A stretch of 32,000 bases of DNA from Methylophilaceae bacterium (GCA_947379975.1 CANCPF010000020.1:1-32000); one strand, 5' to 3'; shown: positions 2,631 through 27,928, numbered from the stretch's first letter. Notes: generated by a model not told the origin, from the letters alone. Made by a program: numbers and translations.

Positions 2631-2673
2631 GGCCCCCTAGCTCATGCTTGGTTAGAGCAGCGGACTCATAATC
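2631..2673 (+). pseudogene. 5' half of resident tRNA-Ile2(CAU), severed in the anticodon loop by island insertion
   Basis: GGCCCCC-TA-GCTC...GAGC-A-GCGGA-CTCATAA-TC, followed by unrelated AT-rich DNA. Identical to the island tRNA 5' exon except at position 7 (C versus T). Confidence 0.85.
2664..2673. repeat. attL core (ACTCATAATC), direct repeat of 27883-27892
   Basis: The exact 10-bp repeat lies at the two points where tRNA sequence meets island sequence. Confidence 0.8.
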
Positions 2674-2747
2674 TATTTAAGAAGTTTAGTTCTAGCAATA
2701 AAATAGTTATAAATCAGTAGGTTAGTTGTAGTAAAATAGTTAAAAAT

Positions 2748-2808
2748 TGCTTCCACAGTGCTTCCACAGTTTTTGTGGAAGTAAAGCAGCAGACCTGTGG
2801 AAGTAAAG
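2748..2808. promoter_or_regulatory. Cluster of four CTTCCACA repeats, putative integrase arm-type sites (left arm)
   Basis: TGCTTCCACAG occurs in tandem at 2748-2758 and 2759-2769. The inverted TGTGGAAGTAAAG occurs at 2774-2786 and 2796-2808. The same motif recurs at 3658-3665 and at 27805-27825, near the other island end. Confidence 0.55.
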
Positions 2809-2818
2809 TAAAGTTTTC

Positions 2819-3100
2819 GGCCCCTTAGCTCATGCTTGGTTAGAGCAGCGGACTCATAAAAAATTGTGCCATACGTTTGGAAACTGCGTATGGGATGGTG
2901 TCAAATTCGGTGAAACCTGACGGCAGAAATGCACAAGGCAATGCCGAGCGAAGCTTAGTGTGAAAGCACTTTGAACGTGTAGAGACTTGACGGCACCCAC
3001 CTAAAGCTTCGGCCATGGTGAAGACAAAGTCCAGGGAGTGGTGAAAGCCACACAAACCAGAATCCGTTGGTGCTGTGTTCGACTCACAGAGGGGCCACCA
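2819..3100 (+). tRNA. ileX: tRNA-Ile2 (anticodon CAU, lysidine type) interrupted by a group I intron
   Basis: Exons 2819-2857 and 3061-3100 join to a cloverleaf: acceptor GGCCCCT/AGGGGCC, anticodon stem GCGGA/TCCGT, loop CTCATAA, T arm CTGTG-TTCGACT-CACAG, encoded CCA. The G1:C72 pair and a non-GGG anticodon stem argue against an initiator tRNA. From memory it closely resembles E. coli ileX (GGCCCCUUAGCUCA...). Confidence 0.88.
2858..3060 (+). ncRNA. Group I intron (IC3, Azoarcus tRNA-Ile type), no ORF
   Basis: Inserted after CAU (between nt 36 and 37). The internal guide GTG (2866-2868) can pair with exon CAT through a U.G wobble. Core strings GGGATGGTGTCAAATTCGGTGAAACC and GTGTAGAGACTTGACGGCACCCACCTAA match my memory of the Azoarcus intron. 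The P2 arms CCATACG/CGTATGG are complementary. The terminal G at 3060 precedes exon AATCCG. Confidence 0.85.
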
Positions 3101-3110
3101 AAATAGATAA

Positions 3111-3139
3111 CCTCAGCTAGAGATAGCTGGGGTTTTTTT
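3111..3139 (+). terminator. Rho-independent terminator of island tRNA
   Basis: CCTCAGCTA-gaga-TAGCTGGGG followed by TTTTTTT. Confidence 0.75.
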
Positions 3140-3264
3140 ATATTTTTAAATTAGATAATGTGAGAATATAAACAAATAGGTGATCAGTTGTATTTTGCGG
3201 GTAAAAACTAAAAATCCAGTTTTTTGAAATATGTTAATTATGATAAATTTTATGGGGATATAAA

Positions 3265-3588
3265 ATGGCTATCAAATTTGCTAGATTCAATATAGAGCTT
3301 TCAGAAACCTCGAATTCAGAGAAAATAGCTGATGAGTGGCAAAGTATGTTAAACGATGCTGCAATCGAAGGCTATGCTAATAGTTATGAGATATTCTACT
3401 CCTCGCAGCTAGGAGTTGTCGGGGTAAGCATTCCTTATGAATCTGAGGATCCAATATCACTTCTAGAGGCTGGTGCGGTATTAGGATTTTGTCAGTCAAG
3501 ATGCGAGCAGTCAGACATTGGAGAGGGCCAAAGCATGTGGTTGTCTTTACATGAAGCTGATGATTCAACCATTTATTCCCCAATCTGA
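3265..3588 (+). CDS. Hypothetical small, strongly acidic protein
   Basis: 107-aa ORF with GGGGA upstream of the ATG. By my count about 18 D/E versus 4 K/R. No recognisable motif. Confidence 0.5.
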   Translation: MAIKFARFNIELSETSNSEKIADEWQSMLNDAAIEGYANSYEIFYSSQLGVVGVSIPYESEDPISLLEAGAVLGFCQSRCEQSDIGEGQSMWLSLHEADDSTIYSPI

Positions 3589-3622
3589 TGTTCACAATCG
3601 TTAAAAGTTGTGACGCTTTTTT

Positions 3623-3676
3623 AATTTTCTTTTACTACTAAAAGCTCTCTAAATATTCTTCCACAAAATCCGTTGC
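3623..3676. repeat. Degenerate att-like sequence upstream of int
   Basis: ATTTTCTTTTACTACT resembles the island right end ATTTCTTGAAACTACT (27871-27886). CTTCCACA followed by AAATCCGTTG resembles the core plus the start of the tRNA 3' half (CTCATAATCCGTTG). Confidence 0.35.
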
Positions 3677-3707
3677 TTTTTTCCCTACATGATCTTACAT
3701 TTACAAC

Positions 3708-5081
3708 ATGCCTGAAAAAGTCGAAACTACCTATCAAATCCTGCCTCGTGAATTGATTGTTTATCAGCGCGGAGATAGTGATGTTTGGCAATGCCGTCTC
3801 AAAGTGGACAGCAAATGGTTTTCTAAAACCACAAAAGAGCGTGATCTAAATAAAGCCATAGAACGTGCTAAGCGTTTGTTATTTGAAGCGCAACTTCGTA
3901 AAGAATCAAACATTCCCATAGTCACTAAAAAATTCCGTGACATAGCAAGGCTTGCCAAGCAGCAGATGCTTGACGAGCTAGCTAATCCTAAAATGAAAGC
4001 GCCTGTTTCATTTAATCAATACATCAAGATTATTGATGATTATTTGACTCCATTCTTTGGTAATAAGAATATTGATGGCATCAATTTTGAAGCGTTGGAT
4101 GAGTATGAAATTTGGCGCACTAAAGAAATGGGCAAAGCACCTGCCTACAGCACTGTACGCAAACACAACGTCACATTAAATAGAGTATTTGATAAGGCTG
4201 TTGAAAAAGGTTACATCACCCAATCAAGCAAACCCAAGCTTGAAACCAAAGGGCAAAAGTCTACTGAGTATGCAACGTTTGATGTCACGGAAGTTAATGC
4301 AGTGCTGGGTAATTTTCCAAGTTGGATTGCTAACACCAAGAATCAAGAAAAGCGCGAACAACGCGAGTTGTTATATGACTATGTACGTGTGCTCCTTGAC
4401 ACAGGAGCACGCCCGGGCAAAGAGTTATTGGATCTCCAATGGAAGAACATTAGGTGCAGAATTGCTGTCAGTGATGATGTCATTCGTCAGGTGGATGAAG
4501 AGGGTAATGTCATTGAAATGACGCATGAAGGTTTAGATGATGCAGGTGAATCGAATCCATTAACAAAATGGGAAGCCACAGTTTCGATGTCAGTGTATGG
4601 CAAAACCAAAGACAGAATTGCGAACGGATTTGATGCTACGTTTAATGTGCTTAAAGAGATTGTTGCTAGGAATTATCCCAACACAGAATTAACTCTGAAA
4701 AAGCTCACTGAAGCGAATGATGAAAGGTTTGTGTTTAGAACACGATCTGATAAAGAGCCCAGCAGCTTTAATCATCTGTTTGATCGTTACCTTGATGAAC
4801 ATAGCTTACTAATCGATCGTAATACGGGTAGAAAACGTGTTTTTTATAGCTTGCGAAGTGCATATGCGACAACAGTGATGAATATGGATCAAGTGCCTAT
4901 AAGAGACTTATCTAAGCAGTTAGGTAATTCTGTTGGAATTATCCAGAAGCATTATGATAGGGCTACTGGGGATGCTATCGTTGAAAACGTCAGAGCACCT
5001 AATGCTAGAAAAGCGTTGTTTAATACAGACTCAGTTGCTGATATCTATAAGTCCAAAAAAAATAATATTAAGAACAAGTAA
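3708..5081 (+). CDS. int: Tyrosine recombinase / island integrase
   Basis: 457 aa. Catalytic-domain signatures LLDTGARPGKELLDLQW (Arg I), FYSLRSAYAT (box II) and GIIQKHYDR (catalytic Tyr). Sits next to a tRNA at an island end. Confidence 0.9.
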   Translation: MPEKVETTYQILPRELIVYQRGDSDVWQCRLKVDSKWFSKTTKERDLNKAIERAKRLLFEAQLRKESNIPIVTKKFRDIARLAKQQMLDELANPKMKAPVSFNQYIKIIDDYLTPFFGNKNIDGINFEALDEYEIWRTKEMGKAPAYSTVRKHNVTLNRVFDKAVEKGYITQSSKPKLETKGQKSTEYATFDVTEVNAVLGNFPSWIANTKNQEKREQRELLYDYVRVLLDTGARPGKELLDLQWKNIRCRIAVSDDVIRQVDEEGNVIEMTHEGLDDAGESNPLTKWEATVSMSVYGKTKDRIANGFDATFNVLKEIVARNYPNTELTLKKLTEANDERFVFRTRSDKEPSSFNHLFDRYLDEHSLLIDRNTGRKRVFYSLRSAYATTVMNMDQVPIRDLSKQLGNSVGIIQKHYDRATGDAIVENVRAPNARKALFNTDSVADIYKSKKNNIKNK

Positions 5082-5221
5082 ATTTGATAGGTATTAGGAT
5101 TGATCGAACGGGCAGCTATTCGCAAGTATTAGTGTCTTAGCATTCGATGTCCTGATTTCGGTTGTCCATGAGCCGAGGTCGACCATACACTAGCGCTAAC
5201 ACTTTATAGGTTAGTACTAGC

Positions 5222-5593
5222 ATGCAAGAATCACTCACAGCAGATTTCCTCTCAGCACTTAGCTATTTTACAGGCACTGAAAAATACTACCGACTCTATC
5301 CAAAAGTAGTATTAACGGATGGTGCAAAATATCTTGCTGATACCGCAGGCTGTTATTGGTTGATGGATTTATATGCGTCACATCTGTCCGCGATTGACCC
5401 GAGCATTGAGAGTTTTACCTGTCTCAAGCTCACTAAAAATGGCATCGGTGCAGCAATAGTGATCGAGGATGGCAATAGCCATACACTCGCCAAGCAGTTT
5501 GTCGAATACACTGATTTTTCGTTAAGTAGCTTTATTTTTTACGCTGTTTGGGCAGGTGACTTTTGGGTGTTGATGCTGACTAGTGAGTATTAA
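5222..5593 (+). CDS. Hypothetical protein, possibly a DUF6876-type family associated with mobile elements
   Basis: 123-aa ORF. The pattern FTGTEKYYR...LTDGAKYLADTAGCYWLMD resembles, from memory, a small family found on plasmids and ICEs. Not verified. Confidence 0.55.
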   Translation: MQESLTADFLSALSYFTGTEKYYRLYPKVVLTDGAKYLADTAGCYWLMDLYASHLSAIDPSIESFTCLKLTKNGIGAAIVIEDGNSHTLAKQFVEYTDFSLSSFIFYAVWAGDFWVLMLTSEY

Positions 5594-5614
5594 AAAAGGG
5601 AGCCAAAGCTCCCC
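5592..5614 (-). terminator. Rho-independent terminator of the 7571-5638 minus-strand operon
   Basis: GGGAGC-caaa-GCTCCC, with a T-run on the minus strand (AAAAAA on plus at 5592-5597). Confidence 0.7.
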
Positions 5615-5637
5615 TGAAATCACACCATAGATATTAG

Positions 5638-6156
5638 TTAAATGTTAATAGGGTTAAAAGTCTCGAAATTATAATGAGGCTGAATGAATGTGCCAGATCT
5701 AACAGCTCTGCTTTCGGCCTTACCATCAGCGTAAATCCGAATGCTTTCGAAGTAGACATAACGATTTTTTTCGTTAGCTGTGCAAGCAATCTCAATCCAG
5801 CCATTAATAATCGTATTAACAAATTCATTGCTCAGCTCTTCTAAAGAAATTTGCTGAGTTTCAATATCAGATTCCCTAATCTCGTCATCTGAAGCTTCGT
5901 TGAATGAGATTCTCTTCATTGAACCATCATTATTTAACATTACAACTGCAATTGGTATTTCAGGGAGTACTGTTGGATACTGGCAGTTAAAATCGTCGTA
6001 ATACCAAAAAGTAAGTTTCCCCTCTATTTCATCTGCTGTCCATTCCCCATTCGCGTTGCTCCAGTTGTAGCGATTTAAGATTGAAACTAATTCTGCAGAA
6101 TTAACTACACAATCCTCTGAAGTTGATAAAATGATACCACCGTATGCGTCTGACAT
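5638..6156 (-). CDS. Hypothetical protein
   Basis: The internal ATG at 6156 (MSDAYGG...) is preceded by AAGGTGAAAA. The longer track ORF start at 6225 would read through a 25-bp palindrome, so I shortened it. Confidence 0.6.
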   Translation of the reverse strand: MSDAYGGIILSTSEDCVVNSAELVSILNRYNWSNANGEWTADEIEGKLTFWYYDDFNCQYPTVLPEIPIAVVMLNNDGSMKRISFNEASDDEIRESDIETQQISLEELSNEFVNTIINGWIEIACTANEKNRYVYFESIRIYADGKAESRAVRSGTFIQPHYNFETFNPINI

Positions 6157-6188
6157 AATTTTCACCTTATAATTTAATGATGTTGATT

Positions 6189-6213
6189 GCAGCGTTACAA
6201 GTTGTAACGCTGC
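6189..6213. repeat. Palindrome GCAGCGTTAC-aagtt-GTAACGCTGC, member of the island CGTTAC-N5-GTAACG family
   Basis: Perfect 10-bp arms with a 5-nt spacer, in the spacer between two minus-strand genes. Confidence 0.7.
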
Positions 6214-6225
6214 GTTTGCAAACAA

Positions 6226-7032
6226 TTAGGTTGATGCTAATTGTTTAGTTCGTTCAGCTTCGCTATTTGCACGCTCGCGTTCCATTTGCACACCGCGCTT
6301 TTCAGCACGCTTAATATTTGCAGCTTCAATAAACTTTCTGCCTGCTTTGCTATCTTTATCCCAATCTTTAAAAGCAAAGTCCCCAATCAGTTTTGTTGCC
6401 CGCTGTTCAAAAGCTAAATCGGCAGGCACTTTCATTACGACATGTAGCTGTTTGCCAGTATTAATGCACATTAAGTATTCATAGCGGCATTCTGAATCCA
6501 TTCGATTGAGGCTGCTGTCTAGCACTTCAAACGGTATTTCTTCACGTGCTAATAAGTACTCCTCTGCTAGTGCGAACCTTTCATTAATAATTGCCTCTGC
6601 TTTTTCCTTCATATCCGCATCAACACCAATTGCACGTATGTGCTCTATTCCTCCTTCTGTTTCAGCAAACTCAGCAAAGTTATCTGCTTTAATGTTGCTA
6701 GCAATAGCAGTATCAATTGCACGTGCATACACATGTGTTGTTTTACGATCTGCACGAGTGATGTATTTCACTAAAATAGCTGTCGTTGAACTGTTAGCTT
6801 GTGTTTTGATGTTGTACTGATTTTGTAATTCACGTCTGATGCTACTAATAAGCGCATCCCTTTCAGTGCTTGCGTTTACTGCAGCAGTAAAACGCATGAT
6901 GTTGGCTATCATTTCATATAAGGCCTTGCGGCCCCCAATGACGTATTGCGTATTAAATGCTTCATGCGCCTTAGCTAAGTCCATAGCCTGTGTTATCAAA
7001 GATTTTTTCATAATTAAATTAGTTGTTTGCAT
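6226..7032 (-). CDS. Hypothetical protein
   Basis: 268-aa ORF with GAAAGGAAC upstream of the ATG. No recognisable motif. Confidence 0.65.
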   Translation of the reverse strand: MQTTNLIMKKSLITQAMDLAKAHEAFNTQYVIGGRKALYEMIANIMRFTAAVNASTERDALISSIRRELQNQYNIKTQANSSTTAILVKYITRADRKTTHVYARAIDTAIASNIKADNFAEFAETEGGIEHIRAIGVDADMKEKAEAIINERFALAEEYLLAREEIPFEVLDSSLNRMDSECRYEYLMCINTGKQLHVVMKVPADLAFEQRATKLIGDFAFKDWDKDSKAGRKFIEAANIKRAEKRGVQMERERANSEAERTKQLAST

Positions 7033-7048
7033 ATATGTTCCTTTCTAG

Positions 7049-7390: not shown

Positions 7391-7409
7391 AAAAATTCTC
7401 CTGTATTAA

Positions 7410-7571: not shown

Positions 7572-7678
7572 TTTTAAATCCTTAGTCATCCAGCGAATTG
7601 CTGTATAGCCATCATATATATTATTAACAATCTATATTATTTCATCATTTATTTCAAAATACATGTTAATATTTAAAT

Positions 7679-9044: not shown

Positions 9045-9611
9045 TTAAACTAACTCAACTGCATTACGCAGTATGTCTGGACGTGTATCAATATATTTTT
9101 GGGTGGTGCTCATCGCCGAGTGCCCTGCGAGTTGCATCATCACCCTAACTGAAACCCCCTTTTCAGAAAGTTTTGTCAAATATCCTCTGCGACCTGAATG
9201 CGATGTAGCTCCATCTAACCCAGCTTGACGATATAAGCCATTCACAATGTGCGTAAGCGTATTGGAAGTAAAGCCATCAGCACGTAAGGTAGCAAATAAG
9301 GGCTTTTTAAGATCTTTGCATGGCTGAGCTAGTACATAGCTAGCTAATTCAGCTTGCATGCGTTCTGATAACAATACTTCACGGCTTTTACTACCTTTAG
9401 TTTGTTCTGCGCTCAAATAAATCTCAGTACGTATCTTTTGGTCGGTAGTGAGCACATCGCAATAGCGTAGTGCAGCGACTTCACCAATTCGCATTCCAGC
9501 CCAATGTGTGAGTAGTAGAATAGTTTTATTGCGTTTAGCGAATTTAGTTTGATTGGTGTAATCCAGTACACGTTGTAATTCACGATCTGATATTGTTTTT
9601 GCTTGTGACAT
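9045..9611 (-). CDS. Small tyrosine recombinase, catalytic domain only (FimB/FimE-sized)
   Basis: Signatures THWAGMRIGEVAALRY (Arg I), HSGRRGYLT (H-x-x-R) and LAGHSAMSTTQKYI (His...Tyr). Start moved to the ATG at 9611, which is preceded by AAAGGAGAA. Confidence 0.85.
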   Translation of the reverse strand: MSQAKTISDRELQRVLDYTNQTKFAKRNKTILLLTHWAGMRIGEVAALRYCDVLTTDQKIRTEIYLSAEQTKGSKSREVLLSERMQAELASYVLAQPCKDLKKPLFATLRADGFTSNTLTHIVNGLYRQAGLDGATSHSGRRGYLTKLSEKGVSVRVMMQLAGHSAMSTTQKYIDTRPDILRNAVELV

Positions 9612-10649
9612 TTTGTTCTCCTTTTTGAACACATTTTGTTATTAGTATTTTGTTTTCAGTTGAAAGAAATTCCTATCTATTTTGTAAATATTGAAACCAA
9701 ATAACTATCAATGACTTAGCTGTGGTTCGGCCTCTTTGAACACAAAATAGTACAAATGTGTTGAGACGTTTAATAGGGTTTATGGATGTACTAATACCAA
9801 ATGTTTCATTACTAGTATTTAGTGAGGAGTTGGCTTTACTTTGATTATTTCAGGTGACTTCACTTAAATCTGAAATCGATCTATTTGAGCATTACCTGAG
9901 ATTAATATTGGTTTGATGGGAAGTGATTGCATACACATAGTATTAAAGCGAACACGTTCGCTTGTTCTTCGCTTGCGCTCATCACATTTTTTCTTTATGT
10001 GATTGTTATTTAAAACTTCATAGCTCTTCATAATTGGATAGATGAATTATTGATGTGTTTTTCTGTTTTTCCCATTTAGTAGGAAGAATAAGCCACGCCC
10101 TTTTACAGGGCATGGTCTTGAGTACACCTTTTAGTGAGGTATCCAAACAACTGATATACACACAACTTGAATTAACAAGTAAGGCAGGTTTTGCGGTCTC
10201 CTTTTACGTGCTCGTCTTACGCAACATATCTATCGCCTATATCAGAAGCTTGTTTAGATATGTTTGTGGGCTAAATGTGGCGTTCCCACTCACTTTCAGC
10301 TTATCCATTCGCGATAAGCCTACATTACGTATTACTACGCAACTAACCATATACAACATTACAAACGTTACAGCACAGTGGTGCGTCGTTTAAGGCATCC
10401 ATAAAGGGTAGTGTAATGAAGATGAGTAGTAAGTGACTCAATTTGCTTACCGTCACGCATTTAAGAACGGATTTCGCAGCACTATGATAATCGGCGTGCC
10501 AACCTTAACCTTACTTGTACACTTATTTATACTTGAACAGTAACAACCAAGATTAAATGTGGTTCTTGTTCAAGATTGGCCAAAAGAGGTTGTCCAGACC
10601 CTAGATCAGATCATATTGTTGTGTTGCCTTAACTAAATGGAGATAAATC

Positions 10650-13217: not shown

Positions 13218-15239
13218 TTATTTTGCTTCTAGCTGCTTGATCTGCGTATTTATACATTTATTATATGCAGCAGGCCCATTAATAAATTTATCTTCTGAAC
13301 AATTGATTTCAACCCTCTTTTTCTGTTCTTCAGTGAGTGAATCTAAAGCCAAATTGCTCGTTTGCTGATTTAACTTCTTAAGATGATTGAGCATGCATTG
13401 ATCATATGAGTTTTTACCGGCAAATGTAGACTGTGTACAAGCTGAAGTAATGGAGTCAAACTCGCCTTTATTTAGCGTTGATAGCTGTGATTTTATAAAG
13501 TCGTCTTTACCTGCTTTTGGATTCGTAATAATTGCTGATTTTTTATTTTTGCTTATAGCTTTACTATCTGAGCCTTTAGAATCTAATTCCCGTTCAAGAA
13601 GAGTTATTTGATCTCTATATTCTTCGGCGTAATTTATCCAAAGACTTTCATTAAGCTGTTTTTTTGCCGCTTCAATATACTCTCTGGCTTTAAGATAATT
13701 GTTTGTTTTTAAGTATATTCTTGCTAAGGCAGTCTCAGTCTGAGCACTGTGGTGGTGATTCATTAGAGCCTTTTCATACCATCCTATTGCCTCAAATACA
13801 TTTTTATCTACACCCCAGCCTCTTTCATAAAGCATCCCAATATTGCTAGCGCCCTCCATGTGCCCAAGGTTATATCCATTTAAATTTAATTCATATGCTT
13901 TCTTATAATCATGAAAGCTATTGTTAGGATCCATTAGGCGCCACCCTTCATTCACCACTTGTCTTGCGGTAGCAGAAGGGGCATCAGGATCTATAGCAAT
14001 CAGAGTGCTTGGTGAGTATTCGGTAGGGGCTTTTGGTTTATCAAAGATAGGGATTAATATTATTAGAAAGGCAGCGAATAAAAACATAAGCAACACGATT
14101 TTGAAATCCTTACGTGGTTTAGTACTTGGTGTTACTATATTTTTCGTAAGGAGGGGTATGATTGTTTTATTCGAATTTGGTTTAAAATCTTTCAAGCTTT
14201 GCAGATAGCAAGTAGGACACTCTTTACCTTTGAATCTCATGTGAGCAATGTTTAAAGGCTCTTTATCACATCTAACTAATGACTTTTCTACCAAAAGCTT
14301 TTCAAGATGATTTGCCCATTTTTCTGCCGAAGGCCTTTCATCAAGCTTTCCTATAAATGCTCTATCAAATAGCTCTCTGGTTTTGTTATCCCATAAAAAA
14401 TGGATACTTTGAGGTCTTGGTTTGATGCTCAGGTTCGGCTGAATAGCATGCGGATATAGCCCTGCCGCAGCTTTTTCATCATTAGTCGCAATCCCTTCAT
14501 CGTCTACAAGGATGCCTTGAAACGGATGAGTGCCATTATTTAAAAGCTGAAACAATATTACAGCTAAGGCATATCTATCCTGATTCTCACCTAAATCTTT
14601 TGGTGATATCTTTCCTCTAAAAGCCTCTGGAGAAATGTAATCTGTAGAAATTAATTCCGCTGGGAATCGACTACTTTCATTGGACTTCTTGTCAGCTACT
14701 GAAAAGCCATCGCAATCCACCAATGAAACAATATGTGTTTGCCTGAATACTCTTATGTTCTGTGGCTTAAGGTCAATGAAGTAATGCTTGTTTTTATGTA
14801 GGGCAGCTACAATTAATGAGAGATTTTTTGCAATTTCTAACTTGTATGAGAATGCCACCTCATCTGGAGCATTTAGTTTTTTGAATAAAACTTGATCATA
14901 AAAATAATCTAAAGAAAAAGAGTCATGAAGGTCGACAAGTGGCATTAAATAACCAGCCGTCACTCCATGCTCATCTTTTAGGGTAGCAAAAGGCCAGGCT
15001 ATTTGTGGGTATGTCACTCCAGCAAAACTAATATGAATATCATCAGGTTTATTAGACAACATTGCCCTGATTTTGGGCTCATCTACCTTCTTATTGGCAT
15101 GATAGACCTTTGCCGCTACCACCTCAGATTCAAACTCTACTTTGTAAATGACAGCGGTAGCGCCTTTGCCTAGTTGATTGGTTGGGCTTATATCTACTGC
15201 GACTTTATGATTGCTTGTGTCATGAACGAAGTATCTCAA
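13218..15239 (-). CDS. Membrane-spanning Ser/Thr protein kinase with extracytoplasmic Sel1-repeat and Cys-motif C-terminal region
   Basis: Kinase motifs: GKGATAVIYKV (G-loop), VAAKVY (Lys), FIDLKPQNIRV (catalytic loop), VDCDGFS (DFG-like), ISPE (APE-like). TM helix IVLLMFLFAAFLIILIPIF. Sel1 repeat NIGMLYERGWGVDKN. TTG start overlaps the PP2C stop (TTGA). Confidence 0.9.
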   Translation of the reverse strand: MRYFVHDTSNHKVAVDISPTNQLGKGATAVIYKVEFESEVVAAKVYHANKKVDEPKIRAMLSNKPDDIHISFAGVTYPQIAWPFATLKDEHGVTAGYLMPLVDLHDSFSLDYFYDQVLFKKLNAPDEVAFSYKLEIAKNLSLIVAALHKNKHYFIDLKPQNIRVFRQTHIVSLVDCDGFSVADKKSNESSRFPAELISTDYISPEAFRGKISPKDLGENQDRYALAVILFQLLNNGTHPFQGILVDDEGIATNDEKAAAGLYPHAIQPNLSIKPRPQSIHFLWDNKTRELFDRAFIGKLDERPSAEKWANHLEKLLVEKSLVRCDKEPLNIAHMRFKGKECPTCYLQSLKDFKPNSNKTIIPLLTKNIVTPSTKPRKDFKIVLLMFLFAAFLIILIPIFDKPKAPTEYSPSTLIAIDPDAPSATARQVVNEGWRLMDPNNSFHDYKKAYELNLNGYNLGHMEGASNIGMLYERGWGVDKNVFEAIGWYEKALMNHHHSAQTETALARIYLKTNNYLKAREYIEAAKKQLNESLWINYAEEYRDQITLLERELDSKGSDSKAISKNKKSAIITNPKAGKDDFIKSQLSTLNKGEFDSITSACTQSTFAGKNSYDQCMLNHLKKLNQQTSNLALDSLTEEQKKRVEINCSEDKFINGPAAYNKCINTQIKQLEAK

Positions 15240-16243
15240 TTAAAAAATCCCTTGAAGGATAAGTAGCTTAATCTAATAAGATAAAAAACGATCACACCTA
15301 AAGTAATGAAAAATGTGTACTTGGCGAAGTGCCCTAACAGATAAGCCCATTTAGTCTCTGCCACGATTGAGTGCTTACCTTGAGTCACATCAGCTTTTAG
15401 GTATTTCTTATCAGTATTAACATGTTCAATCTTTTTAGGTTCTTTAACGATTGATTTGTCTTCAGATTCGTCAATGTGAACTCCTCTTCTAAAAGCCAAA
15501 CAAATTGTTTTATCATCGCCTGTTAATTTATCTGCCTGAATGTCAGCTAAGATTGATTTGAGTTTGTCATTTCTTCCAGTCTGACTCTTCTCTTTCTCGA
15601 TCATATTAAATAGAGGAACGACGAAACCCCATTTAGGCTCACTATCGTTAACCATCGATAGTGAAGTACCTCCGTCAGTACCAAGCATTATCCAGTCTAC
15701 TGAGTTGATTGGAATGATTCTTAAACGCTTAATCCAGTCAGCTTCAGTAATAAAGTATGTTTCATTTGAATATTCGCCATTTTCTGGTAAGGAAGAGAAG
15801 TAATCTGCTTTTATATTGGTAGAAATAGACTTACCACCAAAAGCAGCGCCATCTCCAATATGAATTAGAAAACCCCCAGTTTCACCAATCAGACAAGCTA
15901 ACAAAGTACAGTGATAATTCCTTAGGTTGTCGCTTTTAGCTATTGTTCTTAGCTCATAACGAGCCTTTAGAATAGATTCGACTACATAGTCATTTATCCA
16001 AGCCCCTGGCTCTCTTTTTTCCAATTCTTCACTGAGTGAAATCAGTGATTTTGAGAAAAATTCCGTTACAAAACTCGAGCTGATTTGAGAGTGCTTGGCA
16101 GAGCCTGCTCCATCACTGACTACAATAGCAAGCCACTTCCCATCTGCACTTTCTGATACGAAGCTTGAGTCCTGACAAGGCAAACCAGTTTTAACATGGT
16201 TCTGCCCAGTAACAGATGAATATGAATAAACCCAATTCGTCAT
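15236..16243 (-). CDS. PP2C-family protein phosphatase with C-terminal TM anchor
   Basis: Motifs AIVVSDGAGSAKHS and IMLGTDGG. C-terminal hydrophobic helix FFITLGVIVFYLIRLSYL. Confidence 0.85.
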   Translation of the reverse strand: MTNWVYSYSSVTGQNHVKTGLPCQDSSFVSESADGKWLAIVVSDGAGSAKHSQISSSFVTEFFSKSLISLSEELEKREPGAWINDYVVESILKARYELRTIAKSDNLRNYHCTLLACLIGETGGFLIHIGDGAAFGGKSISTNIKADYFSSLPENGEYSNETYFITEADWIKRLRIIPINSVDWIMLGTDGGTSLSMVNDSEPKWGFVVPLFNMIEKEKSQTGRNDKLKSILADIQADKLTGDDKTICLAFRRGVHIDESEDKSIVKEPKKIEHVNTDKKYLKADVTQGKHSIVAETKWAYLLGHFAKYTFFITLGVIVFYLIRLSYLSFKGFFN

Positions 16244-16930
16244 TTATAAACCTACATTTCTCCAAGGGTCTGTCGATGGCAACTGAACCGTTTCGCCAGG
16301 TCTACTGCGACTGGCAGCACTCAAACTAGAACTCAGCCAAACAAACAACTCCTTGAATTTCATCCCTTCAAGCATCAGAGGTGGTTTGGTCGAGATTTGT
16401 GCCAATTTTGACAAGTCTGCACCTTCAACACCAATTGAAAAAATCTCCACTTTTTTAGTGGATTCTGCAGATTTACATTCTCTAATTGCAGCATTCCACT
16501 CGTCTGATGAATCAGTTGGTTCCCCATCAGAAATCACCATAATCCAAGGCCTAGTGTAAGAGATTCCAGCAGCCTTAAGGTTAGATTTGCCATCTTCAAC
16601 TAACTGAAGGGCAATTCGAAGACCTTTACCTAGGGGAGTTGAGCCTCCGGCTCTAATTGAAAAGGAGGAGAAATTGACAGCATCTGTCCAATCCATCATT
16701 ATTTCAGCGTCGTTTGTGGGGCCACCAACAGTTACGATTGATATCTGAACGCGGCTTAATGCAGCGTCATCTGCTCTTAAAGCTTCCTCTAATGCATGCA
16801 CTCCAACATTCAATTCTTCCATGCGAGTTTTGCCAGAGGATGTTCTGCTTTCCATAGAGCCTGACGCGTCTAGAACTAGTACACAAGGCGTTCTTTGGTT
16901 TGGATTACCACTAAAATCTATTGCACTCAT
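16244..16930 (-). CDS. vWA-domain protein (TerY-like)
   Basis: MIDAS motif VLVLDASGSM, downstream ISDGEPTD. Abuts the PP2C gene (TAA then ATG). Confidence 0.9.
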   Translation of the reverse strand: MSAIDFSGNPNQRTPCVLVLDASGSMESRTSSGKTRMEELNVGVHALEEALRADDAALSRVQISIVTVGGPTNDAEIMMDWTDAVNFSSFSIRAGGSTPLGKGLRIALQLVEDGKSNLKAAGISYTRPWIMVISDGEPTDSSDEWNAAIRECKSAESTKKVEIFSIGVEGADLSKLAQISTKPPLMLEGMKFKELFVWLSSSLSAASRSRPGETVQLPSTDPWRNVGL

Positions 16931-16943
16931 AAGCCACCATAAT

Positions 16944-17639
16944 TTAGTAAGTTGAATGATTAATTGCTGCTATAACAGCAAAGAGTAAGCACATAACAAT
17001 AAAAGATAATAACGCATATACAAAGATAGTCATGCCTGACTTCCCATTTACCCCTCTAACAACTACGGTGCATGACATGATGTCATGCAGTGTTTGTTTC
17101 TTTGCGGTAAATGGCTGCATAAAATATCCCAATCCCATGAGCAAGGCAGAAAGCCATCGACCAAAGTATCTTCCAACACCTTGACCTAAAGAAATTTGAC
17201 TGAAATTATAGTCAGTAACTTCGAGCCCTAGCCACTCTTTGCCAAAAGTGGCTCTTTTATTGCTCGACTCCATTAGCGAATGATAAAAAACCATAACTAC
17301 TATTCCAAGAAGATAATAGAAGGCGAGTGCTCTTGTGCCTGCTACATTTACTCCCTCTGTCGTGAGAATTAATCCGAAAACGAAGCCAATTAAAAGATTA
17401 GCTAAGCCACCAATGCAAGTGTCAATTGAAGCTGCTGCAAACCTCTCCCAAAAACCAGCATAAATATAAGCAACTGGAGTAGCAAGTGAAGATGTATTAG
17501 AAGGCAAAACAGTTTGAGCTGCTTTGGCTGCTTTTATTTGAACTGGCGTCTGACTAAAAATACGATGGCCACATTGTGGGCAAAATCGCATTGTTCCCAT
17601 TACTGAAGTACCACAACCTTCACAGTATTTGTCAGACAT
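16944..17639 (-). CDS. Zinc-ribbon plus RDD-family membrane protein
   Basis: N-terminal CEGCG...CPQCG. RDD-like WERFAAASIDT. Several TM helices. C-terminal TLHDIMSCTVVV. Confidence 0.8.
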   Translation of the reverse strand: MSDKYCEGCGTSVMGTMRFCPQCGHRIFSQTPVQIKAAKAAQTVLPSNTSSLATPVAYIYAGFWERFAAASIDTCIGGLANLLIGFVFGLILTTEGVNVAGTRALAFYYLLGIVVMVFYHSLMESSNKRATFGKEWLGLEVTDYNFSQISLGQGVGRYFGRWLSALLMGLGYFMQPFTAKKQTLHDIMSCTVVVRGVNGKSGMTIFVYALLSFIVMCLLFAVIAAINHSTY

Positions 17640-22834: not shown

Positions 22835-22837
22835 GAA

Positions 22838-23365: not shown

Positions 23366-23652
23366 TTAATCACCTAATACTCTTCTTCATTATTGCCGAG
23401 ATTATAACCTTTTGAAGAAAGGTAATTATCGCAGCTTGCTACGTGTTCAGAATAAGTTGTCAGTTTCTTCAAGCTCGATGAGTCTTAATGCAGCAACAGT
23501 ATGACGATCTTATCACCTAGATCTATTTGATGGCGCTGACAATTAGCTAAGATTGCTTTTGGGCTCTAAAACATCTCTGCAAACGTCTTTAATTGTCTAA
23601 TGAAACATGACTCTAATTAATAGATAATAATAATCACTGAATGAGGTATCAA

Positions 23653-23718
23653 ATGAATCAAACTGTAAGAGTATTTACCGCTGAATTTAAGCAAAGCGCG
23701 AGATCTATACCAAAATAA
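23653..23718 (+). pseudogene. Possible N-terminal fragment of an IS3-family OrfA transposase
   Basis: MNQTVRVFTAEFKQSARSIPK-stop. The R.F(S/T)AEFK motif is typical of IS3-family OrfA N-termini. Only 21 codons. Confidence 0.3.
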
Positions 23719-23761
23719 TTTATAACGCATCATCAATCAATAGTTCAAAATTGGAGAAATT

Positions 23762-24082
23762 ATGAATAATGAAGCTTCTGTAGAAAAATTCAAAAGCCAG
23801 CTTGAGTTAATAAACCTCAGTCTTGACGAGTTGCGAGAAGAGAGAAAAGAATTAAAGTCAGCAGCTTGGAATTGCGATATCCGTGAGGCTATGGATAGAA
23901 TAATTAAAGCTAAATCATATGAAATAACTAACAATGCAATCCGAGAAAGATTAAATTCACCGAATTTAAGTATGGATGATCTTGTCGCGACTCGGGCATT
24001 TGCTCTTGTTGCAGGAGTTGGTCCTGATGTTATTGATGAATTAAATGAGGCTATAAAATCAATTCAAGGAAAAGAAAAATGA
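23762..24082 (+). CDS. Hypothetical protein, predicted coiled-coil (106 aa)
   Basis: TTGGAGAA upstream of the ATG. The stop overlaps the next start (ATGA). Confidence 0.6.
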   Translation: MNNEASVEKFKSQLELINLSLDELREERKELKSAAWNCDIREAMDRIIKAKSYEITNNAIRERLNSPNLSMDDLVATRAFALVAGVGPDVIDELNEAIKSIQGKEK

Positions 24083-24567
24083 GTAAATCAGATTCAATGT
24101 TATTAGCCTGTGCAAAATTTGTTAAATTTGTGCTGAGTAATAACTTTACAGAATTAGAAAGAAAACTCTTCGCCAAGATGTTGGTAGAGGGTTTCAGAAA
24201 AGCTCATGATCAAGCAGAATCAGAATTTGGGAAGGGAAAGTTTTTGGGCCATCTGTATTGGACTAAAAATGCTCTTGAGCTCTTGGGTCATAACTTAGCA
24301 ATAAAAAAATCCTTATCTGATAATCTAAGGCATGAACATTCAGTGCCATTGATTTATCTGGCTGAAAATATTCTTTTTAAAATGCCGAAGGTAGCAACTG
24401 AATTAGATATTTTTGAAAAAATAAAATATTTTGGAATAGTTGTAATCATGACCAGAGATGAAGATTCGGCGTTGAAATTGAAAAGCAAGATGCCCGATAA
24501 TTGGGATCGGCAAGATATTTTTGCAAGATATGACGATCTTAAATCACAGATTGTTAAAAGAGATTAA
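24079..24567 (+). CDS. Hypothetical protein (162 aa) with an LRHEHSVP motif
   Basis: Translationally coupled to the upstream ORF. H-E-H followed by P is reminiscent of His-Me finger / DUF1524-type nuclease motifs. Speculative. Confidence 0.6.
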   Translation: MSKSDSMLLACAKFVKFVLSNNFTELERKLFAKMLVEGFRKAHDQAESEFGKGKFLGHLYWTKNALELLGHNLAIKKSLSDNLRHEHSVPLIYLAENILFKMPKVATELDIFEKIKYFGIVVIMTRDEDSALKLKSKMPDNWDRQDIFARYDDLKSQIVKRD

Positions 24568-24601
24568 TTCAGATAATCACAATAAGCGCCGGAACAACTA
24601 C

Positions 24602-24847
24602 GCTAAGGCTGGAGTAAGCTTGGGCGACTTAATACCAAGAACTTCAGCGCAGTTTGATATGTTTGCGTCAGGGCAATCAACCAGTCGAAGTACAAGTCTC
24701 ATGAGCACCATCGACCGAATTAACAGTAAGATAGGGCGTGAGTCGATTAAGTTAGCCAGTGAAGGCTTTGCTATGCTGTGGAAGATGAAGCAGGGGAATA
24801 AGAGTCCTAATTTCACGACTAGGTGGGACGAGTTGGTGGTGGTTTGA
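24602..24847 (+). pseudogene. 3' remnant of a umuC/rumB-like gene, copy 2
   Basis: NNYAKAGVSLGDLIPRTSAQFDMF...LMSTIDRINSKIGRESIKLASEGFAMLWKMKQGNKSPNFTTRWDELVVV. Compare the E. coli UmuC C-terminus from memory (YQKAGVMLGD...AQLNLF...LM..MD.LN...GR...WQMK...SPRYTT). No N-terminal polymerase domain is present. Confidence 0.8.
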
Positions 24848-26534
24848 ACAAAATCTCTATGATTTTTAATGAGTTCAAGAGATCAAAACTGATTGCTTCA
24901 ATATGTTTGTGAGGGGTTTTATGTTTACTTAAGAGAGAACACTTTATGGCTTGCGCCTCCTCGCCAGATGAGTGGGCGGCTAGTTTTGCTCTTAAATTAT
25001 TGAGATCTAAAAGCGGATTGACAGCCTCATCAATTACATCAGGTGGAGTGTTTTTTAAATTTAAAATTTCTTTAAGTAACTTGATTGATCCGATGCTAGG
25101 CTCTAATACAAGATTTAATTCTTTGGCAATTCTCTTCAAATAACTTTTTTCAATGCTCTCGACAACAACTTTTGCTAAGAGCAATATCGTGTCAATCCAA
25201 ATTTTTTGAGAGTTAGTTAATGGATAATGAATTTGGTTAATAAGGCTTGGCTCATGCAATTTAAACCATTCATAATTTGAAGCGCCTAAGTGAAATGCAT
25301 AGTCTTTTAGGTCACGTAAATTATCTGGCTCACTATCAAATTCTCCTAAAAAACTGTTTAAGAGTGTTCTTTTTGAAATGGCGCCTTTAGGATTCTCATT
25401 AAAACTTTTCCAATAAACTTGCTCTTGAAAAGGAAGGTCGGCTAAATCGCAAATCAATGTGTGAATCTGACCAGCCTCATTGAAATCGTATTCGCGAAGA
25501 TACCAAGAATTTCTGCATGAAATTGATCTATTTTCTAAGGTATATTTTTCTGGATCGGACTTGTACTTGTCTAGGACAGATGCGTTGAAGAAAACTGGTG
25601 AAGTTTGAAATGGTAGATTTGAATCTGGCTGGAAGTATGACGCTGTTGCTTTGGGGTCGCAGCTAGATTCAATAGTCTGATTGTTCTTAAAGTCATTTAT
25701 TATGAAAGTTTCATATTTTTTTGGCTTATCTTCTTTAGCCTTTAGTATTGCACCGAGCTCTTCAGAGGTGAATTTTGGATAAACAATTTGGCATCCACGG
25801 ATGAATCCAGCCCCATCATTTTGACTGTGAAATTTGTAAAAAATATTGGTATTATCATCTGAGATACTTTCACATTCAGTGTGTTGCCATGCACTGAAGC
25901 CCTTGGGAATAAAGGTGTAATCGAATACTTGTAAAAGTACATTATCCGTTGCGGCCATCTGCAACTCTATAATTTCACGATTAATAGATACAACTGAATC
26001 TGAAAATGATTTACCTGAATCCTGTTGGACTTTAATTACACTTTCAATATCGCCATTAGTATCTAATCTACACCAAGAATTCTTTTCTCTAACCCAGTGT
26101 AAATCGTGTGCAAATAATAAAAACTGAGGCACTTCATAATAATTCTTATTTGGTAATCCATCGAAATGTCTCCGGTGGATAAGGTGTTTTGTGCCCTCAA
26201 TCTCTACACCACTGATTCTAAGTGATGGTTCGTTAAACTCGACTCTAGGTGGTTTCCCTCCGCCATATACCAACCCGCATTGCCAAGTATCATTTCCAAT
26301 ATCCCATTCAGGAATAGTTTTGAAATCTATCTTGCTAATTTCAGACTTCGGTATCAAAAAGGATTTAATAAAAACTTGTCCTTCATTGAAGCTCGACGCT
26401 TCAAGAAGTAAAGATCTATCTGTTTGTTGAAGTGATAATAATTCTAGAAAAAGTTCTTTTTCAAATTGCTCAACTCCATGGGAGTGCTGTTCATATTGAG
26501 GATACGAAAGATTGATTATCGAACTAGCACTCAT
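24819..26534 (-). CDS. Large hypothetical protein (571 aa) with a C-terminal helical region carrying a HEPN-like R-x5-H motif
   Basis: LNNLRAKLAAHSSG (R515...H521, nt 24992-24972). The rest is unrecognised. The last 9 codons (KPPPTRPT) are antisense to the umuC remnant. Confidence 0.7.
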   Translation of the reverse strand: MSASSIINLSYPQYEQHSHGVEQFEKELFLELLSLQQTDRSLLLEASSFNEGQVFIKSFLIPKSEISKIDFKTIPEWDIGNDTWQCGLVYGGGKPPRVEFNEPSLRISGVEIEGTKHLIHRRHFDGLPNKNYYEVPQFLLFAHDLHWVREKNSWCRLDTNGDIESVIKVQQDSGKSFSDSVVSINREIIELQMAATDNVLLQVFDYTFIPKGFSAWQHTECESISDDNTNIFYKFHSQNDGAGFIRGCQIVYPKFTSEELGAILKAKEDKPKKYETFIINDFKNNQTIESSCDPKATASYFQPDSNLPFQTSPVFFNASVLDKYKSDPEKYTLENRSISCRNSWYLREYDFNEAGQIHTLICDLADLPFQEQVYWKSFNENPKGAISKRTLLNSFLGEFDSEPDNLRDLKDYAFHLGASNYEWFKLHEPSLINQIHYPLTNSQKIWIDTILLLAKVVVESIEKSYLKRIAKELNLVLEPSIGSIKLLKEILNLKNTPPDVIDEAVNPLLDLNNLRAKLAAHSSGEEAQAIKCSLLSKHKTPHKHIEAISFDLLNSLKIIEILFKPPPTRPT

Positions 26535-26537
26535 TTT

Positions 26538-27371
26538 TTACTCTTGGATAGAAATAGCGTATTTTTTTGGAATTTTTACTGCTCGTTTTACTTTGATTTC
26601 TGGAGCATATTTTAAGACTAATTTTTTTATTTTTTCATAAGGCCCATCACAACCAACAATTATTGAGGATATTGCCCCTTTAGGGAGTGTAAGAAGCCCA
26701 TTTGGATCAAAATGGTGGCCGCTTAGGAGAGGTTCATCAATTTCAGAGGATAGGATTAATCTATACTCTTTCTCATAACTCCAAACATCTGATTTAATTA
26801 GTAAGGGTGATAAAAGATCTCTTGTGCTTTCGGAGTATGTCTTAAGTGATGGATAATTAGTTTTATATCTGCATTTTAAGGCGGTAAACAACATCGATTT
26901 CTTTAAATCATATTCAATACATATACCAGTATGAGAATTTGCGTAGTGAGACCACATAAGTAAATTCTCTGGATTTGGACTCAAGCAATATATTCTATAT
27001 TTGGATTTTCTAACTACATCAACAATTGCCTCTGAAATTTGGTCTATGACGTGCTTGCTTCTTTGGGGGTCATTTAAAATTTTTCTTATCTCTTCATTTT
27101 TAGCTTGGGCAGGAAATAATTTATTGTAGGTTTTTATCGCCCATTTTTTGTGTAGATAATTCCCGATAAGGCTATTAGAAATAGTGTTGTCGAATTGAGG
27201 GCTACAATCCCATGGGTCGTTAAAAGATGAGGGTAAAGAGCAATAAATAGAGTTTGTTTTTAATAACTCTCGTAGACGTCCGAATTTGTATGGTTGCCAA
27301 TGATAGAGATACTTTAGCCCATTATTATGAGCATTATCTTCACCCAATGCTCGGCGGATAAATTTCTTCAT
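26538..27371 (-). CDS. DUF2971-family protein
   Basis: Motifs SSFNDPWD, LLMWSHYANSHTGICIEYDL and DVWSYEKEYRL are characteristic of DUF2971. Sits 3 nt upstream of the 571-aa gene. Confidence 0.8.
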   Translation of the reverse strand: MKKFIRRALGEDNAHNNGLKYLYHWQPYKFGRLRELLKTNSIYCSLPSSFNDPWDCSPQFDNTISNSLIGNYLHKKWAIKTYNKLFPAQAKNEEIRKILNDPQRSKHVIDQISEAIVDVVRKSKYRIYCLSPNPENLLMWSHYANSHTGICIEYDLKKSMLFTALKCRYKTNYPSLKTYSESTRDLLSPLLIKSDVWSYEKEYRLILSSEIDEPLLSGHHFDPNGLLTLPKGAISSIIVGCDGPYEKIKKLVLKYAPEIKVKRAVKIPKKYAISIQE

Positions 27372-27607
27372 TTGGAAACCTTTTGAGATTTATGATCGCA
27401 TTGTAAGCCTTTTAAACTCTCTCAGCACTTATCTCTGTAGTGAGGAAATCGAGGGATTCGTCCAATTGAAAACTATAGTGAAATTTACGCTTTTGGACTT
27501 TCAAGCCCATCGCTAAAATCAGAAGCTGGTTGGGGCACTTTTTAGCACGGTTCAATCAATACCATTTTTTGACTCAAGGGTAGTGCGCTCTAGAACAGAG
27601 CCTCGAC

Positions 27608-27622
27608 ACTTTTAATCCGTTG
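27608..27622. repeat. Degenerate internal copy of the att core plus tRNA 3'-half start
   Basis: ACTTTTAATCCGTTG versus ACTCATAATCCGTTG at attR (13 of 15 identical). Confidence 0.3.
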
Positions 27623-27736
27623 ATCGGGTGCTCTCAGTAGCACTTTCAACACAGCAAAAATAGGAGCTTTAACTAGTTTTTACAGTGAAAATCACTCTCT
27701 GGTACTCTCAAAATTCAGCGTTAATTTATCAAAAAT

Positions 27737-27761
27737 TAACCGTTACTTAAAGTAACGGTTA
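27737..27761. repeat. Palindrome TAACCGTTAC-ttaaa-GTAACGGTTA (CGTTAC-N5-GTAACG family)
   Basis: Perfect 10-bp arms, about 120 bp inside the island right end. Confidence 0.7.
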
Positions 27762-27804
27762 TATTCAAAACTTGAACGCACTAAAATCACCGAGAAATTA
27801 AACC

Positions 27805-27825
27805 TGCTTCCACATTTACTTCCAC
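27805..27825. promoter_or_regulatory. Two CTTCCAC(A) repeats, putative integrase arm-type sites (right arm)
   Basis: TGCTTCCACA at 27805-27814 and TTTACTTCCAC at 27815-27825. Same motif as the left-arm cluster. Confidence 0.5.
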
Positions 27826-27882
27826 GGTTTTTATTTTGTTCAATAAGCTATTGATTCATATTATTTAATATTTCTTGAAACT

Positions 27883-27892
27883 ACTCATAATC
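27883..27892. repeat. attR core (ACTCATAATC)
   Basis: Exact direct repeat of 2664-2673. Confidence 0.8.
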
Positions 27893-27928
27893 CGTTGGTG
27901 CTGTGTTCGACTCACAGGGGGGCCACCA
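27884..27928 (+). pseudogene. 3' half of the resident tRNA-Ile2(CAU): anticodon loop to CCA
   Basis: CTCATAA-TCCGT-TGGTG-CTGTG-TTCGACT-CACAG-GGGGGCC-A-CCA. The acceptor strand is complementary to the 5' half at 2631-2637. Confidence 0.85.

Follow-up and report, generated by a model that had tools for sequence, protein, structure and literature searches.

The window analysed here is a 32,000-nt stretch of DNA from a Methylophilaceae bacterium (GCA_947379975.1 CANCPF010000020.1:1-32000) that contains a genomic island inserted in a tRNA-Ile2(CAU) gene. The island occupies positions 2674-27882 (25,209 bp), has a G+C content slightly below that of its flanks and lies in the anticodon loop of the tRNA gene found 3' of rpoD. 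It separates the host gene into two fragments and carries, close to its left end, a complete tRNA-Ile2 copy interrupted by an intron and followed by an integrase gene. The features of both ends are given below in window coordinates.

2631-2673, plus strand: 5' fragment of the host tRNA-Ile2(CAU) gene, nt 1-40 in standard numbering, tRNA side of the left attachment site (attL)
2664-2673, plus strand: left copy of the 10-bp core ACTCATAATC, tRNA nt 31-40
2674-2818, plus strand: P' arm of the attachment site of the element (attP), with putative arm sites CTTCCACAG at 2750-2758 and 2761-2769 (plus strand) and at 2774-2781 and 2795-2803 (minus strand)
2819-2857, plus strand: exon 1 of the island tRNA-Ile2 gene, through U36
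2858-3060, plus strand: group I intron of 203 nt, of the Azoarcus tRNA-Ile type, between U36 and A37
3061-3100, plus strand: exon 2 of the island tRNA-Ile2 gene, CCA encoded
3109-3134, plus strand: terminator-like hairpin and T run (intrinsic), directly after the island tRNA gene
3708-5081, plus strand: island integrase of 457 residues, a tyrosine recombinase with lambda-Int-like architecture
27775-27882, plus strand: P arm of attP, with two direct CTTCCAC sites at 27807-27815 and 27819-27827
27883-27928, plus strand: core and 3' fragment of the host tRNA-Ile2 gene, nt 31-76 including CCA, tRNA side of the right attachment site (attR)

The 5' fragment of the host gene reads GGCCCCCTAGCTCATGCTTGGTTAGAGCAGCGGACTCATAATC and ends in ...GGACTCATAATC, beyond which unrelated AT-rich DNA follows. 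The 3' fragment with its core reads ACTCATAATCCGTTGGTGCTGTGTTCGACTCACAGGGGGGCCACCA, the right core copy being 27883-27892. The 10-bp sequence ACTCATAATC is present exactly twice within the window, at these two junctions, where simple arithmetic gives a chance expectation of about 0.06 for any given 10-mer. Fusion of 2631-2673 to 27893-27928 produces a 79-nt cloverleaf with anticodon CAU according to ARAGORN. At both junctions the tRNA sequence stops right after the core, and on the left the DNA continues as TATTTAAGAAG..., unrelated to tRNA. Neither junction rebuilds the host tRNA-Ile2 gene, which is left as two dead halves. Over its entire length, the joined host tRNA shares 80% identity with an Escherichia coli gene annotated as tRNA-Ile and adjoining rpoD-mug; from this match and from the position after rpoD (the gene order left of the island is dnaG-rpoD, then the split tRNA), the gene is therefore assigned to the lysidine-dependent tRNA-Ile2(CAU) and not to tRNA-Met. 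The pairs C4:G69 and C5:G68, which we take to be determinants of TilS recognition, are present as well.

The uninterrupted state of this locus was found in the same species. Two contigs (L001 and L005; comparison loci are designated by L numbers) carry rpoD, an intact intron-less tRNA gene, the M24 peptidase gene and ppc in this order. They align to window positions 198-2673 or 1-2673 and then from 27883 onward at 99.3-99.95% identity, and the two alignment pieces overlap by 10 bp, i.e. the core. Identity amounts to 99.5% for window 198-2673 and to 99.95% for 27883-32000. The occupied state also recurs, the left junction of the window being found in the independent assemblies L148 and L002.

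The complete copy carried by the island (2819-3100) begins 145 bp past the left core repeat. It was found by ARAGORN only when introns were allowed, and default ARAGORN and Rfam at its gathering threshold both returned zero matches in the whole 32-kb window. In silico removal of the intron leaves a sequence with just two differences from the joined host gene, C7 to T and the compensatory change of its partner, G to A. The intervening sequence follows a U, ends in a G and contains no open reading frame (ORF) in its 203 nt. It matches Rfam RF00028 over the full length of the model (positions 1-253) with 42.3 bits and an E value of 2e-9, and its core sequences presumably agree with those of the Azoarcus tRNA-Ile intron. 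The pre-tRNA-Ile of Azoarcus BH72 is known to contain a group I intron (PMC3984707). In an alignment of 40 such genes, 33 of the 76 consensus pairs show compensatory changes. Covariation was observed in P2, P5, P6a, P9 and P9.0, with P3, P4 and P8 invariant, and it extends to the acceptor, anticodon and T stems of the tRNA. The arrangement CAU/intron...G/AAUCC (slashes mark exon-intron boundaries here and below) is common to 40 out of 40 sequences. Judging from these comparisons, the intron of the window is intact and belongs to a structurally selected group I family. The 18 nt located 5' of the host tRNA (2613-2630, ...TAAAGGTTTTC) resemble the 18 nt located 5' of the island copy (2801-2818, ...TAAAGTTTTC), a similarity which hints that the copy may have been captured along with its leader from a related chromosome.

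The island integrase matches the PHROG family phrog_1 'integrase' over residues 19-433 (E 1.4e-27). Its catalytic domain was not detected by Pfam, NCBIfam or PDB sequence profiles, which gave a weak SAM-like match only. Its AlphaFold2 model (mean predicted local distance difference test score, pLDDT, of 82) was matched by Foldseek to the folds of lambda Int (1z1b), Tn1549 Int and Cre with a probability of 1.0, and the N-terminal beta-sheet and helix of the model form a putative arm-binding domain. Residues R235, K299, R383 and Y416 are invariant in 24 homologues. Relative to the expected catalytic set R-K-H-R-H/W-Y, the first usual His position seems to correspond to Y380 and the second one to N407, both assigned by eye. 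A total of 708 homologues were recovered at E < 1e-5, some of them named integrase or tyrosine recombinase.

Short repeats accompany both cores. The motif CTTCCACRK has six matches in the window against 0.57 expected, and five of the six are located at the island ends; the site at 2774-2781 comes from a separate repeat analysis and is not among these matches. Two putative arm sites, in direct orientation, lie to the left of the right core at a distance of 56-76 bp; four others, two direct and two inverted, are located 77-140 bp to the right of the left core. The arm-type sites of lambda-like integrases are arranged in the same pattern. When right end, core and left end are joined in silico (...TTCTTGAAACT-ACTCATAATC-TATTTAAGAAG...), the product is about 90% identical to contiguous DNA of L020 and L029, two attP forms in which the CTTCCAC repeats are kept and the adjacent bases diverge. 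A metagenome scan for the attP junction identified four further contigs. In two of them, L130 and L132, the junction is embedded in island genes: those on one side are DUF2971-like or DUF6641-like, and on the other come the intron-bearing tRNA gene, an ORF of 244 residues and an integrase 75% identical to that of the window. L132 ends within the integrase gene; L130 also encodes DUF6876 and is without terminal repeat. A contiguous attP-type junction is found in L155 and L162 as well. L162 shares a 233-kb contig (Ga0633739_000046) with L161, where attL follows rpoD and an attP-like junction is reached after another 34 kb; the identical integrase is encoded twice, 34 kb apart, once behind attL and once behind the attP-like junction, i.e. 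in a tandem array.

Most of this structure had been proposed in a sequence-only reading of the window. That reading described a tRNA 5' half and a matching 3' half, an exact repeat common to both junctions, a host gene split in the anticodon loop without regeneration, and a complete copy 145 bp inside the left junction with a compensatory pair as its only difference, all of which hold. It also foresaw that the empty site of island-free relatives would be the simple fusion of the halves, as L001 and L005 now show with their 10-bp overlap, and the circular junction that it predicted, ...TTGAAaCTACTCATAATCTATTTAAG..., is found uninterrupted and with a single base substituted in L020, L029, L130 and L132.

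The locus is very probably occupied by an integrative island that both disrupts and replaces its target, the replacement being an intron-bearing tRNA-Ile2 gene, in a Methylotenera-like betaproteobacterium. In the mechanism that we propose, the lambda-like integrase would join attP to the intron-less tRNA-Ile2 gene through the shared 10-bp core only, cutting the host gene. As long as the island is integrated, its own copy is predicted to be transcribed, to self-splice and to supply the AUA-decoding tRNA, and the cell would become dependent on it. Precise excision would restore the host gene. Decay of the island would keep the intron-bearing gene, and group I introns would in this manner be installed at native tRNA loci.

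The same arrangement was searched for in other genomes starting either from the intron or from the integrase. The intron-first scan applied a 25-nt core pattern, built on the Azoarcus-type core, to a genome collection and identified at least 119 loci, mostly from Betaproteobacteria. The host tRNA has the anticodon CAU in 70 of the 119 loci listed. About 30 of the 67 tRNA(CAU) loci listed contain a same-strand host 5' fragment 130-340 bp upstream of the intron-bearing gene, and an attP-like junction is present in 4 of these 67. No host fragment among the loci listed stops at U36: all of them continue to nt 38, 40 or 42-44, from which it follows that the target genes had no intron and that the crossover region covers the intron position. 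The junctions fall into four or more families, with distinct island-side sequences and arm repeats. A second island family is found on the same tRNA in the window's own species (L008 3557-3937 and L010 2846-3216), with the junction ...GGACTCATAA/AGGACCTGC (also given as ...CTCATAA/AGGACC) and the arm repeats CTGCTTCTACGG; its replacement copy starts with GCCCCCC and also contains a group I intron.

The integrase-first sample is unbiased for introns. Its informative members are the homologues whose upstream DNA could be inspected (P0001, P0046, P0059, P0079, P0081, P0099 and P0116), P0120 being left out of the count as its locus ends just upstream of the integrase gene. All seven informative homologues, of 46-100% identity, are preceded by a host 5' half or attP, arm repeats and an intron-bearing tRNA-Ile2 gene. 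A jackhmmer search from the window integrase recovered close homologues in 8 of the 119 intron-first loci listed, and a laxer search with the small recombinase of the island (see below) as a second seed recovered 11 ORFs in the loci listed. Many of the intron-first loci are 8-kb chunks, remnants or carriers of other integrase families (e.g. a P4-like integrase in L121). Several downstream ORFs that had been suspected to encode integrases turned out, by eye, to be housekeeping genes. The layout is not restricted to tRNA-Ile2, since it was also observed with tRNA-Lys(UUU) (L072 2499-4300), tRNA-Thr(UGU) (L113 1082-2480) and tRNA-Arg(ACG) (L049 2113-2512). In these three loci the full copy contains an intron and is preceded by a host 5' half, and for Lys and Thr the 3' half is also found downstream. 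The tRNA-Lys locus, from a metagenome-assembled genome of Rhizobiales, has the direct repeat TTTTAATCAGGTG and an element of about 1.75 kb without integrase.

Some variants of intron-bearing tRNA genes were recorded in the same survey. In Polynucleobacter locus L035 (4860-4950), the right end of the element consists of the last ~50 nt of the intron and the 3' exon and is not a simple attR; it may be the trace of a recombination event between two intron-bearing copies. The tRNA(CAU) genes of L105, L106 and L127 have an intervening sequence of about 420 nt versus the usual ~200 nt, and two CAU genes with an intron (L047 and L106) occur in Polynucleobacter sp. MWH-HuK1. Predicted phage contigs of IMG/VR (L135, L137, L145 and L146) carry arrays of 12-21 tRNAs in which tRNAs (CAU, Leu-UAA, Gln) are split by the same intron family. 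According to a 2014 review, the phage introns then known were all in protein-coding genes (PMC3984707).

The position of the intron relative to the core bears on the role that it may play for the element. A second group I lineage was found in the replacement tRNA-Ile2 genes of L152, L153-155 and L156-157. These introns are about 245-254 nt long, are tRNA-Leu-like with the core ...GTAGAGACTGTACGGGTAGG..., and are inserted between U33 and C34 (GGACT/T...GGTAAG/CATAATCC). Both intron sites, U36/A37 and U33/C34, are inside the 7-nt anticodon loop and inside the 10-bp core. With two lineages at two sites within the core, chance capture is hard to argue, and this recurrence gives the strongest comparative support for a functional link between intron and core.

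For integrases that target the anticodon loop, the inverted core-binding sites are provided by the two strands of the anticodon stem and enclose an overlap of 6-8 bp in the loop. An anticodon-loop sublocation class of integration sites was reportedly described by Williams in 2002. In the island copy, the exon-intron junction GCAGCGGACTCATAA/AAAATTG retains the left half-site and the intron-exon junction ...ACCAG/AATCCGTTGG retains the right half-site and four core bases, the two half-sites being 203 bp apart. The intron would split the attB-like anticodon stem-loop in two half-sites, and the integrase would be unable to target the copy carried by its own island. If the intron were missing, the island would contain a perfect attB in the same orientation as the attP core and about 180 bp away from it, and a crossover joining the two sites would remove a 180-bp segment with the P' arm. 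We infer from this arrangement that the intron shields the island copy from the integrase. The sequence-only reading had already proposed that the intron blocks the use of this copy by the integrase; this proposal has gained strong comparative support from host fragments that pass the intron site and from two lineages in the core. Three points go beyond that reading: the intron belongs to group I, the arrangement is widespread, and a precedent without intron has been published (see below).

Further loci represent states in which the element has decayed. The complete Methylophilaceae chromosome of L051 carries a 1.2-kb remnant without integrase, consisting in this order of a mutated 5' half, arm repeats, the intron-bearing gene in pristine state followed by its terminator, a stretch of about 700 bp, TTGAAGCT-ACTCATAATC and a 3' half that is also mutated. 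The sequence-only reading had suggested that imprecise loss of the island would be lethal if the island copy were the sole tRNA-Ile2 gene, and this remnant fits the suggestion. Decayed host halves are also present in L053, L100, L121, L016 and L077. In L013, L036 and L040, the host half and the island copy differ in the D arm; the replacement therefore came from another lineage. On sequence comparison, these remnant states fit a ratchet in which the intron-bearing copy would become the working gene once the host gene is cut, and would outlive the island. Disruption and replacement followed by island decay could then be a main route by which tRNA introns devoid of endonuclease pass from lineage to lineage and become fixed at native tRNA loci, the Azoarcus tRNA-Ile ribozyme included, through integrase-mediated homing and an addiction ratchet. 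This generalization is tentative, and we hold it to be possible, with slightly less than even confidence.

A number of points weigh against the proposed mechanism, some of them in favour of the alternatives discussed next. Transcription, splicing, lysidine modification and integrase activity are addressed here from sequence alone. A promoter scan gave no convincing candidate for the island tRNA, and the RF00028 score of the intron is below the gathering threshold of 50. The exon-intron junction of the island copy retains 8 of the 10 core bases (ACTCATAA/AA). The tandem array of L161 and L162 implies that attP-like contigs need not be free circles, and also that an occupied site is still open to a second element. 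As many as 32 of the 67 tRNA(CAU) loci listed have neither host fragment nor attP junction and are mostly located directly after rpoD, so that islands might simply have captured a local intron-bearing allele. Actinophages disrupt and replace tRNA genes without any intron (PMC10865867), and an intron is thus not required in principle. Finally, the proposed dependence of the host is judged from the 32-kb window, and a second tRNA-Ile2 gene may exist elsewhere in the genome.

The alternative that survives best grants disruption and replacement and considers the intron as a passenger without protective role, either a captured betaproteobacterial allele or a hitch-hiker. It is in agreement with the 32 intron-bearing loci found at the native rpoD site without island traces, with the intron-less and diverged replacement tRNAs of actinophages (PMC10865867), and with the host-like leader located 5' of the island copy, which suggests chromosomal capture. 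We nevertheless regard it as unlikely. An intron-bearing copy accompanies seven out of seven informative integrase homologues, two unrelated intron lineages occupy two positions that are both within the 7-nt loop and the 10-bp core, and the same layout is found for tRNA-Lys, tRNA-Thr and tRNA-Arg. Moreover, with target-identical exons in direct orientation 145 bp from the core, an intron-less copy would amount to a perfect attB in cis.

In a second alternative, another tRNA-Ile2 gene would decode AUA, the split would be costless and the island copy would be dispensable cargo. The search for tRNA-Ile2 genes covered the 32-kb window, and E. coli genomes have one or two matching places. This redundancy is improbable given the fate of the copy in other loci: it is perfect in the integrase-less remnant L051 next to mutated host halves, likewise in L053, L100 and L121, and it is kept across integrase homologues down to 46% identity. 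Purifying selection on the exons and on the stems of the tRNA is clear, and compensatory changes are seen.

Two last alternatives can be set aside, starting with an ordinary tRNA-regenerating island or an assembly artefact, in which the intron-bearing gene would be the resident and the halves leftovers or mis-joins: canonical islands do leave a displaced tRNA fragment at one end (Islander, PMC4383910), but this explanation is refuted by the empty-site and attP contigs, the empty site being intron-less and the exact fusion of the halves, the attP forms containing the intron gene inside the element, the tRNA sequence ending at the 10-bp core at both junctions and the same integrated structure having been assembled independently in L148 and L002. 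That the insertion arose through intron homing or through transposition, and not through site-specific recombination by an integrase, is likewise extremely improbable. Group I introns can move via homing endonucleases (PMC3984707), but the 203-nt intron is devoid of any ORF, what was inserted measures 25 kb and includes a tyrosine integrase gene, arm repeats and the 10-bp core, and the target is an intron-less loop whose halves remain on either side, not converted.

The remaining genes of the island and its chromosomal flanks are as follows.

639-2582, plus strand: rpoD, left chromosomal flank, all Sigma70 regions matched in Pfam, likely true start ATG 642
5222-5593, plus strand: DUF6876 protein (Pfam E 9e-28), which also adjoins the integrase gene in L130, L148, L151, L155 and L161-163
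9045-9632, minus strand: catalytic-domain-only tyrosine recombinase of 195 residues (Pfam Phage_integrase E 2.9e-24)
13218-17639, minus strand: cargo operon encoding a Ser/Thr kinase with Sel1 repeats, a PP2C phosphatase, a vWA protein and an RDD/zinc-ribbon membrane protein (Pfam)
24521-24847, plus strand: isolated DUF4113 (UmuC C-terminal) ORF of 108 residues, probably a gene fragment
26538-27371, minus strand: DUF2971 protein (Pfam; PADLOC candidate defence gene PDC-S31, E 3e-51), last gene before the right end
27937-27960: terminator hairpin of the host gene, 3' of the host tRNA 3' fragment
27979-31614: right chromosomal flank, with M24 peptidase (27979-28680, minus strand) and phosphoenolpyruvate carboxylase (28813-31614, plus strand) genes (Pfam)

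The RpoD protein starting at ATG 642, and not the form with the GTG start, was matched exactly on 10 same-species contigs, and the chromosomal flank is 82.8% identical to the Methylotenera sp. contig L108. Within the island, the kinase of the cargo operon resembles PADLOC PD-T4-6 defence kinases (E 4e-11), and the kinase-PP2C-vWA-RDD operon may be a defence or signalling module. Homologues of the small recombinase, of 189 residues, are encoded near the integrase in L152, L154-157, L159 and L160; this protein may be a partner of the integrase or a second recombinase of the element. Genes common to related islands encode the integrase, the DUF6876, DUF6641 and DUF2971 proteins and the small catalytic-domain-only recombinase. 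Searches for capsid, tail, terminase, lysis and repressor proteins gave zero matches in Pfam for all 29 island ORFs considered and in PHROGs for 10 of them, and conjugation genes were not detected in the island. The element looks like a non-autonomous defence island and not like a phage.

The spread of bacterial tRNA introns devoid of endonuclease, together with their location in the anticodon loop, is an old open question, for which this locus and its relatives offer a testable vehicle: the integrase would destroy the intron-less allele and leave the intron-bearing one, and host dependence would then preserve the copy past the decay of the island. There are also practical consequences. Standard tRNA finders and island mappers miss such genes; genomes may thus seem to be without tRNA-Ile2 and the islands may stay unmapped. 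The module made of attP, tRNA gene and integrase could additionally serve as a self-selecting integration tool. In the full-text literature covered, which leaves subscription-only papers outside, there is no report tying bacterial group I tRNA introns to integrases or islands, or of an intron-shielded replacement gene.

Azoarcus-type tRNA introns share with the window intron the host tRNA, the insertion in the anticodon loop and a length of about 200 nt without ORF (PMC3984707). They are treated in the literature as residents of chromosomal tRNA genes whose spread is unclear, whereas the window intron is the cargo of an element that destroys the intron-less allele. Canonical islands and prophages that target tRNA genes (Islander database, PMC4383910) also have a tyrosine integrase, which is encoded near the tRNA-proximal end, and recombine within the anticodon loop. 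Their attP holds the whole 3' part of the tRNA and the gene is regenerated; in the window, the identity is limited to 10 bp and no gene is regenerated. A protective role of introns has been put forward for Archaea by Randau and Soll, for whom introns and split genes protect tRNA genes from integrating elements, as summarised in PMC4390854. Common to that hypothesis and to the one made here is the idea that the target of integration is lost when an intron interrupts the anticodon loop. The archaeal case concerns host genes and introns spliced by proteins, whereas the window presents a mobile element's own copy in Bacteria with a group I intron predicted to be self-splicing. The window and its relatives may be the first bacterial case of an intron protecting a tRNA gene from integration, a protection that would here be used by the mobile element itself.

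The closest known system is the tRNA-dependent lysogeny of actinophages (Fionnbharth/Subcluster K4 and Cluster L; Guerrero-Bustamante and Hatfull, mBio 2024, PMC10865867). A tyrosine integrase recombines there at a common core of about 10 bp within a tRNA gene, the gene is not reconstructed, and lysogens are viable only with a tRNA of that isotype supplied by the phage; the Lactobacillus johnsonii prophage Lj965 is cited in the same paper and introns are not mentioned there. The window element resembles these phages in its tyrosine integrase with putative arm-type sites, its attB over the anticodon region of a tRNA gene, its core of about 10 bp, the lack of a rebuilt tRNA gene at attL or attR, and the replacement tRNA of the same isotype that it carries. 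In contrast with them, it is a betaproteobacterial island without detected phage genes and uses tRNA-Ile2(CAU) rather than their Lys(UUU). Its replacement gene is located 145 bp from the core and not elsewhere in the genome, and has exons that are near-identical to the target and not diverged, split by a group I intron in the core. With the window and its relatives, integration that depends on a tRNA is no longer limited to actinophages and also includes proteobacterial defence islands that are not phages. Overall, disruption and replacement of a tRNA gene was already known, and what appears to be new is the interruption of the replacement by an intron, its recurrence in two intron lineages and the route of intron spread that it implies.

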